Made by a program: the position numbers and the translations under genes. Below are positions 18,401 to 48,400 of a DNA stretch of 64,000 bases, piece by piece; position 1 is the first letter of the stretch, and every line of letters begins with the position of its first letter. This DNA comes from Mustelus asterias (Eukaryota): NCBI RefSeq assembly GCF_964213995.1, contig NC_135818.1:24056001-24120000 (forward strand), read 5' to 3'. The notes under the pieces were generated by a model. That model was not told where the DNA came from and made no database searches. It saw nothing but the letters and a program-made list of their open reading frames with translations.

Positions 18401-21400
18401 AAATCACAAACAGAAAATGTTCTCCCTTTTTGACTTCAGTGAATTACAGCAGAAGGTGGGCCCAGAAGAAAAGAGGGAAGTTTGAATCAAGTGAAGATGT
18501 GTTTCTGATGCTAACAATGAGTAGTTTATGTCAAGCTCTGACATTATTTGCTTTTGTTCATAACTAAAGAATCATTGGTACTGCCGGTGAGAATATTTTT
18601 TTGGGCCAGTAGAGATGATTGATATCTTGCAGTGTCATTTCCTTTGGCAGTATCCATGATCTCATGCACAACTATACTTGTGATTGGTGATCTAATCAAT
18701 CTTAATGTTGAAGTGCAGTTGAATTCAGAATAATATGGTTACACCCTTGCTCCTTGCTCATACATTGCAAATCCTTTGCAAAGGCAGAGAGCAGCTTTCT
18801 CCACCAGAGAGAGAGACAATATTAAGGGTTACTTGGAGACATCTTCAGCTATTCGCCTGCCAACTCTTTAAACTTGTACTTCTCTCTCTGTGGGTTTAGT
18901 TAATAATATTTCTCCCAACATCAGCCCACAGTATAATTCAATACTTGTTTAGTGGTTAGGTTTGATGAGGTGACCCACTGCATTTTTATATTGATCATTT
19001 ATAAACCAAATGAGTATTGGCTGCTGAGTTTTATTGGTTCTGGAGTGCACAGGTAAAATGTGCTGAGTACATTAGTGTTTCTATTGTCTCACTGAAAGGA
19101 CTAATGACATATGATCTCTGTGGATCTCTGCTTCCTCAGAGCCTGAAACCTATTGTAAAAATGACTAGAAATACAGTATGTTGCTGATCACATTGTTTCT
19201 CATTCTTTCGTTGTTCTTACATCTAGTTCTTAATGGGAACACGTGTGATTCCTCGCTGACTTTTAACATCTCCTGGTACCTCAGGTATTCACACTGCTAC
19301 AATGAAGTCTTCAACATGCAAGTAAGTTTAATTTGCAGTAGGTTAGACTTGCAAGTAGTATATTGCAGTGCTGTTTCGTGAAGCTTTTGACATAGACAAT
19401 TTGCTGGATGCACAACAGAATGTTGGTCCCCATTTGCAGCCACACACATTTTGTTTATGTAACTATGAAAAATGCTGAGCAAAGGGTGACAGAAGAAGAA
19501 GGGTGAAAAATTTAGGATTTTAGTTGTATTTGAATAGGGCTGTTTTGCTTGGTGGATGGAATGCTTTCTCCTGGTATCAGCATCTTACATTTTCTGGAAA
19601 GTAACATCAGACGAAACTGTGTTGAATCCCAGTTTAGTCAATGTTCCACTTCCATTTAGTCCACAGACATGGAGACCATTAAGTCTGGCGGGGTAGGGGG
19701 GAGTGCCTTTGGGCTTGTGAAGACAAAGATTGCAGGTAGTTATCAGTACCACTGCAATTGCGTAGAATTCAGTCTGCAATTTGAAAGAAGGAAGGCAGAA
19801 TCAGATGTGAAGGTTCTACAGTTAAATAAAGGTAATTACAGGCGCATGAGGGAGGAACTGACAAAAATCGACTGGAAGCAGAGCCTAGTGGGAAAGACAG
19901 TAGAACAGCAATGGCAGGAGTTTCTGGGAGTAATTGAGGACACAGTGCAGAGGTTCATCCCAAACAAAAGAAAGGTTATCAGAGGGGGGATTAGGCAGCC
20001 ATGGCTGACAAAGGAAGTCAGGGAATGCATCAAGGCAAAAGAGAGAGCCTATAATGTGGCAAAGAGTAGTGGGAAGTCAAGATTGGGAAGGCTATAAAAA
20101 CAAACAGAGGATAACAAAGAGAGAAATAAGGAAGGAGAGGATCAAATATGAAGGTAGGCTAGCCAGTAACATTAGGAATGATAGTAAAAGTTTCTTTAAA
20201 TACATTAAAAACAAACGGGAGGCAAAAGTAGACATTGGGCCGCTCCAAAATGACGCTGGTAATCTAGTGATGGGAGACAAGGAAATAGCTGAGGAACTTA
20301 ATAAGTACTTTGCGTCAGTCTTCACAGTAGAAGACATGAGTAATATCCCAACAATTCAGGAAAGTCAGGGGGCAGAGTTGAATATGGTTGCCATCACAAA
20401 GGAGAAAGTGCTAGAGAAACTAAAAGGTCTGAAAATTGATAAATCTCCGGGCTCAGATGGGCTACATCCTAGAGTTCTAAAGGAGATAGCTGAAGAAATA
20501 GTGGAGGCGTTAGTTATGATCTTTCAAAAGTCACTGGAGTCAGGGAAAGTCCCAGAGGATTGGAAAATCGCTGTTGTAACCCCACTGTTCAAGAAGGGAA
20601 CAAGAAAAAAGATGGAAAATTATAGGCCAATTAGCCTAACCTCAGTTGTGGGCAAAATTCTAGAATCCATCGTTAAGGATGAGATTTCTAAATTCTTGGA
20701 AGTGCAGGGTCGGATTAGGACAAGTCAGCATGGATTTAGTAAGGGGAGGTCGTGCCTGACAAACCTGTTAGAGTTCTTTGAAGAGATAACAAATAGGTTA
20801 GACCAAGGAGAGCCAATGGATGTTATCTATCTTGACTTCCAAAAGGCCTTTGACAAGGTGCCTCACGGGAGACTGCTGAGTAAAATAAGGGCCCATGGTA
20901 TTCGAGGCAAGGTACTAACATGGATTGACGATTGGCTGTCAGACAGAAGGCAGAGAGTTGGGATAAAAGGTTCTTTCTCAGAATGGCAACCGGTGACAAG
21001 TGGTGTCCCGCAGGGTTCAGTGTTGGGGCCACAGCTGTTCTCTTTATATATTAACGATCTAGACGACGGGACTGGGGGCATTCTGGCCAAGTTTGCCGAT
21101 GATACAAAGATAGGTGGAGGGGCAGGTAGTATTGAGGAGGTGGGGAGGCTGCAGAAAGATTTAGACAGTTTAGGAGAGTGGTCCAAGAAGTGGCTGATGA
21201 AATTCAACGTGGGCAAGTGCGAGGTCGTGCACTTTGGAAAAAAGAATAGAGGCATGGACTATTTTCTAAACGGTGACAAAATTCATAGTGCTAAAGTGCA
21301 AAGGGACTTGGGAGTCCTAGTCCAGGATTCTCTAAAGGTAAACTTGCAGGTTGAGTCCGTAATTAAGAAAGCAAATGTAATGTTGTCATTTATCTCAAGA

Positions 21401-24400
21401 GGCTTGGAATACAAAAGCTGGAGGCTGGAGCGATCCGATGCTGGATGGGAGACACCGAACGGGCCACGTGAATGGCAGGATGGTAGAAGGTGATGGGATA
21501 TGTTGATCATTATAAAGGATCTTTGATATTTCATTAGCTGCAAGAAAGCAATGGAATTGTTTGAAGAAGAGTTGACATGTCCCATCTGTTGCTGTTTATT
21601 TGAAGACCCACGAGTTCTCCCTTGTTCACATAATTTCTGCAAGCGATGTTTAGAAGGCATTTTGGAAGGAAGTGGGAGAGGTATGCAATGCAAAGTTGCT
21701 TTCAAATGTCCAACCTGTCGCAAAGAAACCCCTATCATGGGAATTAACAATTTGCAGGTGAATTATTCGCTGAGGGGAATAATTGAGAAGTACAACAGGA
21801 TTCGGAACACACCTAAAGTGCCACTCTGCAGGAAGCATAGTGGGCAACCATTGAACATCTTTTGTTCAACGGACCTTGAATTAATCTGTGGGTTTTGCGC
21901 CACTATGGGAGACCATGAAGGACATTCCTTCTGTGCCATCAAAGATGCCTACAGAGAGGAGAGGGAAGCTTTTGATGGGCTTTTCCAAGGGCTAGAAACT
22001 TGGTGTTCTGCTGATGTGCAGACATGTCTGGAGAAGTTAGAAAGTGATAAGAAAAAATCCCTGCAGCTAATAAGCAAGGATGCAAAAAAGGTGATGGAAT
22101 ATTTTACCAAGTTGCAGCACACACTGGAGCAGAAGAAGAATGAGGTTCTTTCCGATTTTGAAACCATGAAGCTGGTGGTGATGCAGGCCTATGATCCAGA
22201 GATAAATCAACTGAAGATGATCCTAGAAGAACAGAAAAGGGCTATCACTATGGCAGAGACGTTTAAGGATGTCACTGATCCAGTCTTATTTCTACAGCAG
22301 ATGCAAGAGTTTCGCAGTAAAATTAAAGTTGTAAAGGAAACCCCATTGCCTTCTTGCACAAATCTTGAGGTGCACCCTGTAATGAAAAATTTTAACACAA
22401 GCCGTTGGGATAAGGTGAGGCTGAAGGATGTTGATAAAGTTACTTTACCTACAGAGAATTATACCTTCAGATTCAAAGACCCTACTAAATGGTCAGGTAG
22501 AGAATTTGCACCTCCTATTATCAGCCTCCTGCTCCTTATCATAGCGTTCTGGCCTAGTGAGATAATACTTGGCAGCTTTGAGGCTTTGGAAAGCCATATG
22601 ACCACACTCGCTGGCTTATTGCACTATAGTGAGATTGTGGGCATACTTTCACTTGGGTGTCAAGGGTGTAAAAGTATTATTCACGAGTTGTGGCAGAAGG
22701 TAGCAGAATTTGTGCAAATATGAAATACTGTAATGGGTGTGAAAGATTACTGCTAAATTGGAACTACACATCAACCGTCATAGGTGTTGCATGTCTGAGA
22801 TCTCTAGGACCAGATATGTGTGACCTATCTTTTTCACGATCCGAAGATGCAAGAAATTGTGAAAGGAGGCCTGATTATTTTGGATGTTTAGTACTTTAGT
22901 GAATTGGGGATTTTATTTTTAGGTTCAAGTTTTAAATTTATAGCAGTGATTCATGATTTGATCAGATGGATACATTTTAGCTGTGGAATCCATCTGCCTA
23001 CATGACTGGGGACTGTTGTAACTGAACAGTAGTCTCCCTCAGACTTATTTTATATTGTAACGTGGTGATACGCAAATGATCTATTGAGTAATGATTAATA
23101 TTCTTCTAAATTGCCACTTTCATTGTATAATTAGACATGCTTGCTCAGTGATGCATTTCTGCTCCTGTTTTTTAAAAAAAAAAGTATCAGTGCAGCTTTT
23201 CACAAAGATGTGCTTTACCAAAATGAATATACTTTCATTTTTCCTGTGGATGAACACCATGCTGTGCGCTATGAATGTATTTCACAAAAACTGATTCTGG
23301 ATGTTTGTATTTAATAAATGTGAAAGAAAAAAAAAAGGTAGTAATCTCAGGATTACTGCCTGTGCCACGGGAAGGTGAGGGCAGGAATGGAGTGAGGTGG
23401 AAGATGAATGTGTGGCTGAGGGACTGGTGCAGGGGGCAGGGATTCAGGTTCCTGGACCATTGGGACATCTTTAGGGGCAGGGGTGATCTGTATACAAAAA
23501 ACGGGTGGAACTTGAATCACAGGGGGACCAATATCCTGGCCGGTAGGTTGGCTAAGGCTACTGGGGAGAATTTAAACTAGATAGGTTGGGGGGAGGGGAG
23601 CTAGAAGAGTTGACTAGGATCAAGGAACTAATTGATGGGGGGGAGGATGCAGGGGTAAGGGGAATTACAAAATTAATGGTAGAGGAGAGGGTGCAAGTGA
23701 ATGAAGGCGGTAATTTAGATAAGGGAGTAGAGGGAGAGGGTGTTCGCGACTCATCAAAGCGGGTCCAGATAAAAGCTGGAATAAGGACACTTGGCCTGAA
23801 TGCACGAAGCATTCGGAACAAGGTAAATGAGTTGATGGTGCAAATCAGCACAAGTGGGTACGATCTAGTGGCCATTACAGAAACGTGGCTGAAAGGTGAC
23901 CAGGACTGGGAGATGAATATCCAGGGGTATCAGGCGTTTAGGAAGAATAGACCGGAAGGAAAAGGTGGTGGGGTCGCGCTATTAATAAGAGATAATATCA
24001 GGGTAGTACTGAGGGAGGACATAGGCTCTGAGGAACAAAACGTGGAATCATTATGGGTAGAGATGAGGAATAGTAGAGGGAGAAAGACACTAGTAGGTGT
24101 GGTATATAGGCCCCCAAATAATAATGTTGAGGTAGGGAGGGCTATAAACAAGCAGATAAGGGATGCGTGTAAAAACGGAACGGCAATAATCATGGGGGAC
24201 TTCAACATGCACATTGACTGGCAGACTCAAGTCGGTAAGGGTGGAATGGAGGAAGAGTTCTTAGAATGCTGTCGGGATAGTTTCCTTGAACAGCATGTTA
24301 CGGAACCGACGAGGGAACGAGCTATTTTGGATCTGGTATTGTGTAACGAGGTAGGTAGAATTAAGGATCTTATTGTGAAGGACCCTCTTGGGTCTAGTGA

Positions 24401-27400
24401 CCACAATATGGTCGAATTTCTGATTCAGATGGAAGAGGAGAAAGTTTGGTCCCAAACCAGTGTCCTCTGTTTGAACAGAGGGAAATATGATAGGATGAGG
24501 GATGAATTGGCTAAGGTAGACTGGGAGAGCAGGCTGGCAGGTAGGATAGCTGAGGAACAGTGGAGGATTTTTAAGGAGATCCTTTTCAGTTCTCAGCAAA
24601 AATATATTCCAGCAAAAAACAAGGATTGTAAGAAAAGGGAGAACCAGCCGTGGATAACGAAGGAAATAAAGGAGAGTATTAAAATAAAAACAGCTGCGTA
24701 CAGAGTGGCCAAAAATAGTGGAGAAACAAGTGATTGGGAAAAATTTAAGAAACAACAAAGAGAGACTAAGAAAGCGATAAAGAAAGGAAGGATAGACTAT
24801 GAAGCTAGGCTAGCAATTAATATAAAAAATGATAGTAAAAGTTTTTATAAATATATAAAAAGGAATAGAGTGGCTAGAGTGAATGTTGGACCCTTGGAGG
24901 ACGAGAGGGGGGAGTTAATAGTGGGAAATGAGGATATGGCTGAGTCTTTAAATAAGTTTTTTGTGTCGGTCTTCACGGTGGAGGACACAAATAGTTTGCC
25001 AAATATTAACGATAGAGGGTTGGCAGCAGGAGAAATACTTAATACAATTAATGTTACCAGAGAGGCAGTGCTGGGTAGACTAATGGGACTGAAGGTGGAC
25101 AAGTCCCCGGGTCCGGATGGAATGCATCCCAGGGTATTGAAAGAAATGTCAGAGGTAATAGTGGATGCATTAGTGATTATTTATCAAAACTCGTTGCATT
25201 CTGGGGTAGTGCCGGTTGATTGGAAAACGGCTAATGTTACGCCGCTGTTTAAAAAAGGAAGGAGACAAAAGGCGGGTAACTATAGGCCGGTCAGCTTAAC
25301 GTCTGTAGTAGGGAAAATGCTGGAATCCATTATTAAAGAGGAGATAGCAGGGCATCTGGATAGAAATGGTTCGATCAATCAGACGCAGCATGGATTCATG
25401 AGGGGAAAGTTGTGCTTGACGAACATGTTGGATTTTTATGAAGATGTGACTAGGGCGGTTGATGGAGGAGAACTGGTGGATGCGGTGTTTTTGGATTTCC
25501 AAAAGGCGTTTGATAAGGTGCCCCATAAAAGGCTGCTGAAGAAGATTAGGGCGCACGGAGTTGGGGGTAGTGTGTTAAAGTGGATTGGGGACTGGCTATC
25601 CGACAGGAAGCAAAGAGTCGGAATAAATGGGTGTTTTTCCGGTTGGAGGAAGGTAACTAGTGGCGTGCCGCAGGGATCGGTACTCGGGCCGCAACTATTT
25701 ACCATTTATATAGATGATCTGGAGGAGGGGACGGAGTGTAGGGTAACGAAGTTTGCAGACGACACAAAGATAAGTGGAAAAGTGAATCGTGTGGAGGACG
25801 GAGAAGATCTGCAGAGAGATTTAGACAGGCTGAGTGAGTGGGCGAGGATATGGCAAATGGAGTATAACGTTGATAAATGCGAGGTTATACACTTTGGAGG
25901 AAATAATAACAAATGGGATTACTATCTCAATGGAAACAAATTAAAACATGCTACCGTGCAAAGGGACCTGGGGGTCCTTGTGCATGAGACGCAAAAGCCC
26001 AGTCTGCAGGTACAACAGGTGATCAAGAAGGCAGATGGGATGTTGGCCTATATTGCGAGGGGTATAGAATATAAAAGCAGGGATGTCTTGATGCACCTGT
26101 ACAGGGCATTGGTGAGGCCGCAGCTGGAATACTGTGTGCAGTATTGGTCCCCTTATATGAGGAAGGATATATTGGCATTGGAGGGAGTGCAGAGAAGGTT
26201 CACCAGGTTGATACCGGAGATGAGGGGTTTGGATTATGAGGAGAGGCTGAGGAGATTGGGTTTGTACTCGTTGGAGTTTCGAAGGATGAGGGGGGATCTT
26301 ATGGAGACTTATAAGATAATGCGGGGGCTGGATAGGGTGGAGGCGGAGAGATTCTTTCCACTTAGTAAGGAAGTTAAAACTAGAGGACACAGCCTCAAAA
26401 TAAAGGGGGGTCGGTTTAGGACAGAGTTGAGGAGGAACTTCTTCTCCCAGAGGGTGGTGAATCTCTGGAATTCTCTGCCCACTGAGGTGGTGGAGGCTAC
26501 CTCACTGAATATGTTTAAAGCGTGGATGGATGGATTCCTGATCGGTAAGGGAATTAAGGGTTATGGGGATCAGGCGGGTAAGTGGTACTGATCCACGTCA
26601 GATCAGCCATGATCTTATTGAATGGCGGGGCAGGCTCGAGGGGCTAGATGGCCTACTCCTGCTCCTATTTCTTATGTTCTTATGTGTTATTTTCCAGCTA
26701 ATCAGCCATTTGCCTGAATTTCCAGATTGTTGTTGCCACAGTTACAGTGCTCATACTAATATGATCATCTTCACGCTCCCTGTAGTCAGTTGTGGGCAAG
26801 TTACTAGAATCTGTCATTAGTGTTTGAGTGACTGAGTGCTTGGAATATAAAGAGTTGATCAGAGGGTGCCAGCATGGCTTTGTTAATGATAGGTTATCTC
26901 TGACTAACCTAATTATTATTTTTTTAAAAGGTAGGGAAGGGAATATCTGTGGATGGGTGGAGCATAGAAACATGAGTTGGCCAATCAGCCTTTCGAGCCT
27001 GCTCTGCCATTCAGTTAGCTCATTGCTAATTTGGATCTTAACTCCATTTTCCCACCATTTTTTCCATATCAACAGCCATATGTGAGATGGTGGCAAACGG
27101 GATCACAGAAAAAGCGATTCACATTTCCATTATTCTTTGAGTGAAAAGTGCTTGCTAAATTTTAAAATTATGTCCCTTGTTCTTGATTTTCCTATCACAG
27201 GAAATAGTTTTTCCATATCCACCTCATAAAATTCTTGAACATAAACACCTTGATCAGATCAACCTGATATATATGGAAATACAAGTGAAATTCATGCCTC
27301 AAAGACCTACTAGGGAATAGTCCTGTGTTTTGCTGACCATGCTCATGGTCCCAAATACCATCAAAAACATGTGAAGATAGAAATCAAAAACAGGCTCCAT

Positions 27401-45400: not shown

Positions 45401-48400
45401 GTCCCCCCCTACCCTGTNNNNNNNNNNNNNNNNNNNNNNNNNNNNNNNNNNNNNNNNNNNNNNNNNNNNNNNNNNNNNNNNNNNNNNNNNNNNNNNNNNN
45501 NNNNNNNNNNNNNNNNNNNNNNNNNNNNNNNNNNNNNNNNNNNNNNNNNNNNNNNNNNNNNNNNNNNNNNNNNNNNNNNNNNNNNNNNNNNNNNNNNNNN
45601 NNNNNNNNNNNNNNNNNACCCCACCCCCCCACCCCTCCTCCCTGCCCGGTCCCCCCCCACCCCCACACCCCCTCTTGCCCGGTCCCCCCCCACCCCCACC
45701 CCCTCTGCCCGGTCCCCCCCACCCCACACCCCCTCTGCCCGGTCCCCCCCACCCCCACCCCCTCTGCCCGGTCCCCCCACCCCCACCCCCTCTGCCCGGT
45801 CCCCCCCACCCCCACCCCCTCTGCCCGGTCCCCCCCACCCCCACCCCCTCTGCCCGGTCCCCCCCACCCCCTCTGCCCGCTCCCCCCCACCCCCACCCCC
45901 TCTGCCCGCTCCCCCCTCACCCCTCTGCCCGCTCCCCCCCTCACCCCCTCTGCCCGGTCGCGCCCCCTCTGCCCGGTCCCCCCACCCCCTCTGCCCGGTC
46001 CCCCCCCCCCCCTGCCCGGTCCCCCCCCCCCCCCCCCACCCCCTCTGCCCAGTCCCACCCCCTCTGCCTGGTCCCCCCCCCCCACCCCCTCTGCCCGGTC
46101 CCCCCCTCTCCCCGCCATCGCTCTCCCCCGCCCCCCCCCCCTCTCTCTGCCGTCGCCCCCCCGCCGTCGTCCCCCGTCTCTCCCCCGCCCGTCCCCAACC
46201 CAGTTGTTAACTCACAAAACACACAGCAAAATGCAAAAAATATTGATTTCCTCACGACCTGTGGAACTTTCACCCTATAGTGTTTGAAAACGTGTATTGA
46301 TTCAGTAATATTTCCCAATTTATCTCATCTCTTTTACCAATTTTGGTAAAGCCTCACATGATCGGCTTAGCTCTTGCTGGGTTTCTCTAAAATTCCTTGA
46401 ACTATGAAGTTCAAAGACAAAACTAGTGAGGTGTTTTTAACCACATTTAATCTTCTGTAATATTCTTCTGCTGAGATTAATCCTCTGAGATTGGGGCCAA
46501 GGAGTTAAATTGGCATTCAATCTGGCAGGCCTGGGACTTGGGTACTGAAAGAACGCGTTGCAATTTTCAGGAATGAATCCTGATCAAGTCCAGGTTAGCG
46601 GTGGCTAATTTGGTGTATTTGCATTTTATGTTTATTGTCTTGTGGGAATACTATGAAATTAAATGCAAGTGCTGAAAATCAAAGGACAGATCACTGCCGA
46701 ATCTGTGAATGAGTACTGCAGAATCACTTTAATATTTTTTGCAGTCTTTTTCTTTCTTTCTCAATATCTGTTTACAAATTTCAGCGACTGGTTTGCCTCA
46801 TTGACTCTTCTTTCTCCATAGTTCACTGATTACTTGACTTTGTAGTTTTATCACAGGACATTCAGTCACAACATTGGTTAAACGGTCCCACGTTGGTGCT
46901 TTACTAGTCACACATTGGTTAACTTGTTCACGCTGTGTTTTACTTCTCATGCCTTTAACAGTCTTTAGAAATGGTATTGATTTTCATGTTTGATTGTAAC
47001 CTAGCTGCAGTCTTCTGTTGAACTAAAGTTAAACTGAAAACCAAAAAGGATCAAGTATATGGTTCCTGACCCGCATAAAGGGCTAATTGCCAATTAAGCT
47101 GGATGCACTCCAGTTTTTCTCAGTTCATGAATTATTGGACCCACTTGTAATGGTACCACTTTCACTCTCCAAAAAATAGCTAAACAAGTATGTAACAAGA
47201 ACCCCCCAAGTGTTTCTTCCATCTGTGGAGTGTATAGAGTTATCACCAACCTAATCTTACTTCATGGTATAATAATCCAGAGAAAGATAAAATTAAATAG
47301 TGGCAGCAAAACTGATGACTTAAGGGAGAGAGGGAGGGGGGATGAACTGACAGCTGTGGCCTGTCCCTTCAGCCTTGGACAACTACGAATGAAATGAAAC
47401 AAGAATTACTGAAGAGCAATGTATGCAGTCATATCTTGACTATCCATTACTTGAAGCAAAAAAGATATTTTTTTTTGGACACAAGTTTCCATTGCCACGT
47501 AAACTAGTTGGATGCGGCCCAGTACCTGATATAATATGGCCGGGGAATGCAACTTTTTGTTTTTCTGGTCATTTTCCATCCTAAAGGAAAGCACATGAAA
47601 ATTTGGTTCCTTTCTCATTGTTGTGCATGTTCTTTATTTCCTTAAACAGAGGCCTGGCTTGTTCACAAGTTGGGAAGATGGGCCATATTTATTTATAATT
47701 AAAATCCAAGCATCAAAGAAAGAGTCAAAGAAAGAAGAAAACAGCCAAGACATAAAATCCACAACAAAAGTAACTAACCAGATAACGAATAAAAGTAAAG
47801 GGCAGGCAAATGCAAAGAAGAAGGCTGTGCCAGCAGAGGAAGATCATTTGTCACTTACAAGTAAGTACTGTTCATTAACTTGGACGTTGTCACTTCGAAC
47901 ATAGAACAGTGCAGGCCCTTCGGCCCTCGATGTTGTGCCGAGCTTTGTCCAATACCAAGATCAAGCTACCCACTCCCTATCATTCTGGTGTGCTCCATGT
48001 GCCTATTCAATAACCGCTTGAAAGTTCCTAAAGTGTCCGACTCCACTATCACAGCAGGCAGTCCATTCCACACCCCAACCACTCTCTGAGTAAAGAATCT
48101 ACCTCGGACATCCCTCCTATATCTCCCACCATGAACCTTATAGTTATGCCCCCTAGTAACAGCTACATTTACCCGAGGAAATAGTCTCTGAACGTCCACT
48201 CTATCTATCCCCCTTATCATCTTATAAACCTCTATTAAGTCGCCTCTCATCCTCCTCTGCTCTGAAGAGAAAAGCCCCAGCTCCCTCAACCTTTCCTCAT
48301 AAGACCTACCCTCCAAACCAGGCAGCATCCTGGTAAATCTCCTTTGCACTCTTTCCAATGCTTCCACATCTTTCTTATAGTGAGGTGATCAGAACTGCAC

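Follow-up and report, generated by a model that had tools for sequence, protein, structure and literature searches.

A young CR1-TRIM13-CR1 block near a TMEM87-like exon of Mustelus asterias and its possible origin by template jumping of a LINE reverse transcriptase

We analyzed a stretch of 64,000 nucleotides (nt) of the shark Mustelus asterias (the window; NC_135818.1, positions 24,056,001-24,120,000, here C18, source assembly 3.68 Gb), in which a spliced copy of the TRIM13 mRNA lies between pieces of two CR1 elements, long interspersed nuclear elements (LINEs). The block occupies 19762-26685, and its three parts, A, B and C, all lie on the plus strand and are directly joined without genomic spacer; this sandwich structure is present in the assembly. 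Upstream, 440 nt from the block start and on the same strand, lies an exon of a TMEM87-like host gene (19227-19321, bounds from AG/GT), with a weak match to TMEM87A/B (PF21901, E=1.8e-4, under the cut-off, on 19208-19285). The block apparently occupies an intron of this gene.

Part A (19762-21418) is an internal piece of open reading frame (ORF) 2 of a first CR1 family, truncated at its 5' and 3' sides, with an RVT_1 match, one private 2-nt deletion and 99.4-99.6% identity to 29 copies. Three extra bases, TGG (21419-21421), found in neither parent sequence, separate it from B (21422-23322), a copy of spliced TRIM13 exons 1-3 that begins at the predicted start site and stops 4 nt past AATAAA (23313-23318), as identified by a DNA search of the genome and by a spliced contig of sequencing run X3. 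Four such runs were compared, as contigs only and from a subset of pieces listed. The TRIM13 ORF (21551-22723) is intact and encodes 390 amino acids (aa) with RING, B-box and coiled coil. An A-rich linker of AAAG and ten A (23323-23336), the left part of which is C-family-like, leads into C (23334-26685), a copy of a second CR1 family truncated 5' in ORF1 and ending in a 3' tail of 8-nt repeats. As the final three A of the linker belong to the C family, the start of C is placed at 23334; its open ORF2 (23556-26591, 1011 codons) encodes endonuclease and reverse transcriptase (RT). At the outer ends, the seven bases at 19755-19761 are probably not flank, as they echo an 8-mer inside A and the contig alignment of a relative, organism D (run X7), ends at 19754; the right-flank contig of organism D aligns from 26682, so that the last 4 nt of the C tail (26682-26685) overlap the target site, likely as priming microhomology. 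The preliminary description of the locus had the co-orientation and the missing spacer right, but its boundaries had to be corrected: it assigned to B both the TGG, which is foreign to both parents, and the linker, and began C only at 23337.

The genome holds one parent for B, on C17, with three exons (query positions 4-45, 44-126 and 125-1904). B is a processed retrocopy of this intron-containing parent, the GT-AG introns of which (about 6.7 and 4.0 kb) are precisely gone. Downstream of the parental TRIM13, at a distance of about 3.5 kb and on the shared strand, is a KCNRG-like BTB_2 frame, and the parent anticipated next to KCNRG was thus found; the two genes are adjacent in human. B begins at a C/A step, 32 nt from the first base of the parental TATAAA, and the X3 contig, which covers 21437-23322, begins 15 nt inside the B start. 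Based on these two positions, B likely reaches the cap, at a start site that is predicted. At the other end, the X3 contig carries 10 further letters unlike the window where B leaves the parent 4 nt past AATAAA, and the A-tract is therefore not at the usual mRNA end. Its description as a plain poly(A) tail could not be upheld, since it starts so close to AATAAA, at least 10 nt short, and is partly CR1-like, although it may mark a minor cleavage site. The ORF differs from that of the parent in 9 codons, 7 of them synonymously. The copy lacks its own promoter and probably represents a passenger; no RNA dataset was listed as containing it, and the TRIM13 letters of X3 are parental only, among the rows listed.

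The parental locus displays further features. About 35 nt of its 3' untranslated region are inverted between short inverted arms (window 23146-23192 versus the parental locus L002). This micro-inversion is present in the assembly's parent allele, and the copy, the X3 transcript contig and organism D are un-inverted; depths in X1, a run of the same organism and possibly of the assembly's own sample, suggest that the parent is heterozygous for it. At six of the differences within window 21543-23322, the copy has CpG where the parent reads TpG/CpA, and because organism D sides with the copy at five of the six, CpG was lost on the parent and not on the copy. Provirus-like and other long terminal repeat (LTR) element open frames (L135-L137, C17:4827000-4856999) occur 20-50 kb downstream of the parental gene.

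The two CR1 parts represent two young families that are about 66% alike, in agreement with the claim that C belongs to a group distinct from A. C displays features of the CR1 clade, namely an apurinic/apyrimidinic (APE) endonuclease and RT in ORF2 and a short-repeat 3' tail; the label CR1, as opposed to L2, for A and C is an assumption based on the preliminary description and on known motifs. The ORF1 remnant of C (80 aa) gave a Lipase_GDSL_2 match under the cut-off (E=8e-4). Both cut points of A are internal, as the family sequence continues upstream and downstream in 29 of 29 other copies. A is devoid of about 590 nt of its 3' end, which was sought after C and does not reappear there, as had been stated before. 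C in turn lacks at least 1202 nt at its 5' end and carries the sole 3' tail of the block. Family searches used the best 40 of 2367 and the best 40 of 1037 candidates, all 99-100% alike, and the compared copies are thus biased toward closeness. Target duplications are absent or of 4-7 nt in 23 of 24 family A copies, the remaining copy lying inside a tandem repeat.

Both families also occur in other sequence sets. Judged by depth, family C is about equally abundant in organism D and X1 and family A far scarcer in organism D, indicating that family A expanded mainly after the split. A 2934-nt contig of run X10 (organism E) is 99.5% like A and accompanied by near-identical C pieces, TRIM13 and the flanks being uncovered, and several further organisms hold a similar share of A and C sequence; in X10 it may reflect either traces of M. 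asterias DNA carried over at a low level or horizontal transfer. At three loci (L163, L176, L179), young CR1 copies lie tail-to-tail with a CR1 on the opposite strand, perhaps reflecting a target preference.

All three joints carry short sequence echoes. Together with the first bases of B, the three extra bases at A/B make up a 7-nt tandem repeat, an arrangement reached by chance in 313 of 200000 simulations. Shifted by one base, the left part of the A-tract and the bases preceding it agree in 8 of 9 positions with what the C family has immediately 5' of the cut; the linker may represent either a short mixed tail or RT stutter on C. The echo of the 8-mer in the seven bases left of A has a rate of about 2% in shuffled sequence. 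No target duplication was found around any of A, B or C, in line with the proposed single event. For comparison, zebrafish ZfL2-2 insertions have extra 5' nucleotides in about 40% and 3' microhomology in about 80% (PMC2666801), and L2/CR1 duplications measure 3-5 bp (PMC4245944).

The three parts are of similar age. Counted column by column, private substitutions amount to 4/1657 in A (39 copies) and 15/3352 in C (38 copies). For B, with the TRIM13 sequence of organism D as outgroup, 15 listed last-exon differences were assigned to the copy (5) and the parent (10), giving 5/1780; three exon-1 differences were unpolarised. The rates of A, B and C are alike (p=0.43), consistent with the proposed single age. 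As A is no older than C (p=0.33), a history in which A came first is disfavoured.

The assembly is backed by X1 at both outer ends. One X1 contig crosses from the left flank into A and matches its first 30 letters exactly, another starts 17 letters inside the C tail and continues into the right flank, and copy-specific TRIM13 letters have a depth of about 20, equal to that of the flanks. No empty allele was seen in X1 among the pieces listed, nor a haplotig with an empty site in the assembly, where the flank is single-copy. Mis-assembly at one or both internal junctions is thinkable, as these are unbridged among the listed contigs and A and C are high-copy repeats. We consider it highly improbable, given the X1 flank contigs, the depth of the copy letters and the single-copy flank; moreover, a spliced DNA copy must exist somewhere, and only this site was found. 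The block is real, young and well preserved.

The flanks of organism D are about 97% alike. Its left contig ends at 19754 with 27 unlike letters added, and its right contig starts at 26682, preceded by 57 unlike letters. Since neither extension corresponds to A or to a CR1 tail, the block is absent in organism D, of which the listed pieces contain only the unspliced TRIM13 parent. Contigs of one path overlap by no more than 30 letters, so that organism D would hold at least 54 bases at the site, implying either that some tens of target bases were lost in M. asterias or that organism D gained an insertion. The expectation of an empty site in relatives thus held for the block ends; the clean join that had been predicted did not, given the at least 54 further bases and the 4 nt common with the C tail.

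A, B and C probably arrived in one insertion, and we give somewhat better than an even chance overall to a single insertion made by a double template jump of the RT. Priming would have occurred at the target through the C tail, with the 4-nt overlap, followed by copying of 3.35 kb of C RNA. At the A-rich stretch of ORF1 the RT would have jumped onto the 3' end of the TRIM13 mRNA, stutter or a short trimmed-and-tailed end yielding the A-rich linker, and would have copied up to the mRNA 5' end. After a short slip, a second jump would have led onto RNA of CR1 family A; copying may have stopped after 1.66 kb, and joining of the product to the left flank would have added a few bases and cost some tens of bases of the target. 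Run-off of the RT at an mRNA end followed by a jump is expected to leave B starting where it does, 32 nt past TATAAA. Both CR1 families are covered in X3, the run that holds the spliced TRIM13. Whether a tail-specific CR1 RT copied a whole coding mRNA from end to cap, with its poly(A) unused, and then recombined onto a CR1 family only 66% alike appears evenly balanced. The double jump in a single event had been put forward in the preliminary description; one event is indeed most likely, whereas the jumps are inferred and have to be graded alongside their rivals.

Several observations weigh against the double jump. No direct repeats flank the whole block, so that proof of a single event is wanting. 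No contig among the pieces listed bridges A/B or B/C, absence of the block was seen in the one relative covering the flanks and read from contig ends, and the age comparison is a test of low power. Junction echoes are not enriched as a family trait (3 of 54 other junctions versus 2.1%). Furthermore, the A-tract begins 10 nt or more before the usual mRNA end, and the three ORF changes on the copy lineage are all synonymous (p about 0.04), hinting at a diverged allele as template. Finally, a CAAAA motif, found at 11% of positions by chance, occurs 6 nt before the A/B junction, and poly(A)-type (L1-type) retroposition works, and did so recently, in this genome, as documented by the locus L067 described below.

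The loss of at least 10 nt of the mRNA end and the partly C-like linker would be explained by a single insertion with a single jump, in which a preformed TRIM13-CR1 RNA was mobilised by its CR1 tail and the RT, on reaching the cap, jumped to A RNA. RNA ligation could have produced such a molecule, as could read-through of a TRIM13 allele, since lost, that carried C downstream of AATAAA but ahead of the cleavage site. A template resembling a diverged allele is compatible with the 10 parent-side versus 5 copy-side changes and with the synonymous nature of those in the copy's ORF, and the proportion of private changes is nominally higher in C than in A, a difference that is not significant (p=0.33). 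However, no A- or C-family copy of >85% identity is present in the tested parent stretches (C17:4867000-4900999), and the parent contigs in X3 and organism D do not run into C. We therefore regard this origin as unlikely.

Insertion of B and C into an older A was assessed against other CR1 copies of the genome. Of 77 young copies retrieved, 14 were dropped and 63 retained, the latter having both ends and sufficient flanking sequence. A CR1 match at the 5' junction occurred in 19 of the 63, one of which is an intact upstream element. In the other 18, the host resumes within 18 nt in 14 cases, past a further insert in one and on closer look in one, and two are unresolved; both of these are antisense and old, and all four co-oriented hosts resumed. 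Nested CR1 insertions thus normally retain the other half of their host (16/18), supporting the claim that B and C are not simply nested in A. A young co-oriented CR1 lacking its 3' half before another copy was found in 0 of 63. As none is alike and hosts resume, large deletions and CR1-CR1 jumps are uncommon and the block is exceptional. A two-step variant would nevertheless yield the same final structure: with A present first, a B+C chimera would have inserted downstream and joined its 5' end inside A, deleting the last 590 nt of A and flank. The absence here of 54 or more bases that organism D has at the site agrees with it, and L2-clade target truncations of 343-50187 bp occur in Ku70-deficient cultured cells (PMC2666801). 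Yet a young A in matching orientation would have to have been present at exactly this place, the private changes do not make A the older of the two CR1 parts, and the nested controls keep their host's other half, making this history quite unlikely.

Other retrocopies were screened with Pfam families of proteasome, chaperonin, UBC, Ras, mitochondrial carrier and DEAD proteins and kinases, only the top loci being inspected. Six loci were read as processed copies (L067, L127-L131), with parent exons confirmed by DNA for three PSMA7-like copies and a contiguous decayed frame as the basis for the other three. CR1 chimeras numbered 0 among these six, and the proposed search for other CR1-mRNA-CR1 sandwiches has thus returned none in a small screen. 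L067 (C9:99365354-99368818) is a young 5'-truncated PSMA7-like copy with an A10 tail 20 nt past AATAAA and a 10-nt target duplication; it lies in an old CR1, and its parent exons on C20 have 95-100% identity. Its reading as a poly(A)-CR1 fusion was ruled out by the 10-nt duplication inside the old CR1. Two older PSMA7-like copies reside on C13 and C11. As ordinary poly(A) copies with target duplications are also made, the notion that retrogenes need a special route in this genome did not stand, and the results suggest that CR1 chimeras are not its main source of retrocopies. The remaining long-frame matches look like intronless genes; L075 and L076/L077 contain intronless full-length chaperonin (CCT-like) frames and are likely old retrogenes.

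The similar age of L067, the CAAAA just before A/B and an A-rich site in C at B/C would fit an ordinary poly(A)-primed (L1-type) retroposition of B into A or C, with a later insertion or deletion removing CR1 parts. But B is without a flanking duplication, its tail is apparently off the usual cleavage site, the motif has its 11% chance rate, and three events would have to fall close together in time and within a few tens of bases, so that this course seems about as improbable as the two-step variant. Taken together, multi-step histories with deletion are doubtful; they demand that two or three recent events coincided within tens of bases.

Tripartite products attributed to a double template jump are known from Magnaporthe (WEIRD-MgSINE-MGL, one case beside 33 bipartite ones) and mouse (B2-U6-L1) (PMC2104539). 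Like the block, they consist of three co-oriented RNA copies with a LINE 3' end at the right; unlike it, they have outer direct repeats of 14-16 bp that prove one event, and the portion of the source available describes no protein-coding mRNA in the middle (PMC2104539). The block differs from them by its CR1-type LINE, a spliced mRNA with intact ORF in the middle and a second LINE family at the 5' side. It displays features of template switching, with a cellular RNA complete at its 5' end (predicted start) and a 3' part that is a 5'-truncated co-oriented LINE with tail. The block works like a LINE template-switch chimera without the direct repeats that define proven members; lacking these, it has no formal proof of class, CR1 copies here mostly having none or 4-7 nt.

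Stringent L2 and RTE elements form chimeras with U6, one U6-CR1 case in turkey being unresolved because of a gap, and tripartite forms may also arise by two insertions (PMC4476161). As in the block, a tail-priming LINE takes up a cellular RNA at its 5' side and duplications are short or absent, whereas the U6-L2 and U6-RTE chimeras are, as far as the source is accessible, bipartite and restricted to small nuclear RNA (snRNA) (PMC4476161). Seventeen human mRNA-L1 5' chimeras (bioRxiv 10.1101/2025.02.02.635956) likewise have spliced gene RNA from the transcript start, in sense, 5' of the LINE, but according to the accessible part comprise first exons only, often with splice-donor ends, a near full-length L1 and target duplications (bioRxiv 10.1101/2025.02.02.635956); the block contains an entire mRNA, is joined through an A-rich stretch and has a third part. 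LTR-mediated retroposition yields sandwiches via a double switch (PMC5131818). These share the element-mRNA-element order and joints marked by microsimilarity or by short stretches of new bases, but have one element on both sides and a switch in the particle, in contrast to two non-LTR families and target priming (PMC5131818). With L1-type processed pseudogenes the block has in common the loss of introns and an A-tract past AATAAA, and it differs by the lack of a target duplication, a tail apparently off the usual cleavage site and a half-missing CR1 on both sides. No CR1-mRNA-CR1 chimera or shark retrocopy mechanism was found in the openly readable literature, by which absence from print is not established; the accessible parts of PMC3747384 and PMC13320880 hold no such case.

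Recognition of its own 3' sequence is described as preventing CR1 from mobilising ordinary mRNAs (PMC5470649, citing Suh 2015). If the double jump is true, a young CR1-mRNA-CR1 insertion would represent a bypass of this own-tail restriction, and template-switch capture by stringent LINEs would extend from snRNAs to complete coding mRNAs. CR1 alone could then make intact retrogenes and inter-family chimeras, and the meeting of two distant CR1 families in one reaction would be a plausible source of mosaic LINEs and new short interspersed nuclear element (SINE) tails. As bi- and tripartite LINE chimeras are already known, CR1-mRNA-CR1 is likely a rare variant of a known gene-copying route, here seen in a single event that is probably without function. 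It nonetheless provides a concrete signature for screening CR1-rich genomes. Elsewhere in the window, far from the block, a 200-base assembly gap (N) is located at 45418-45617.

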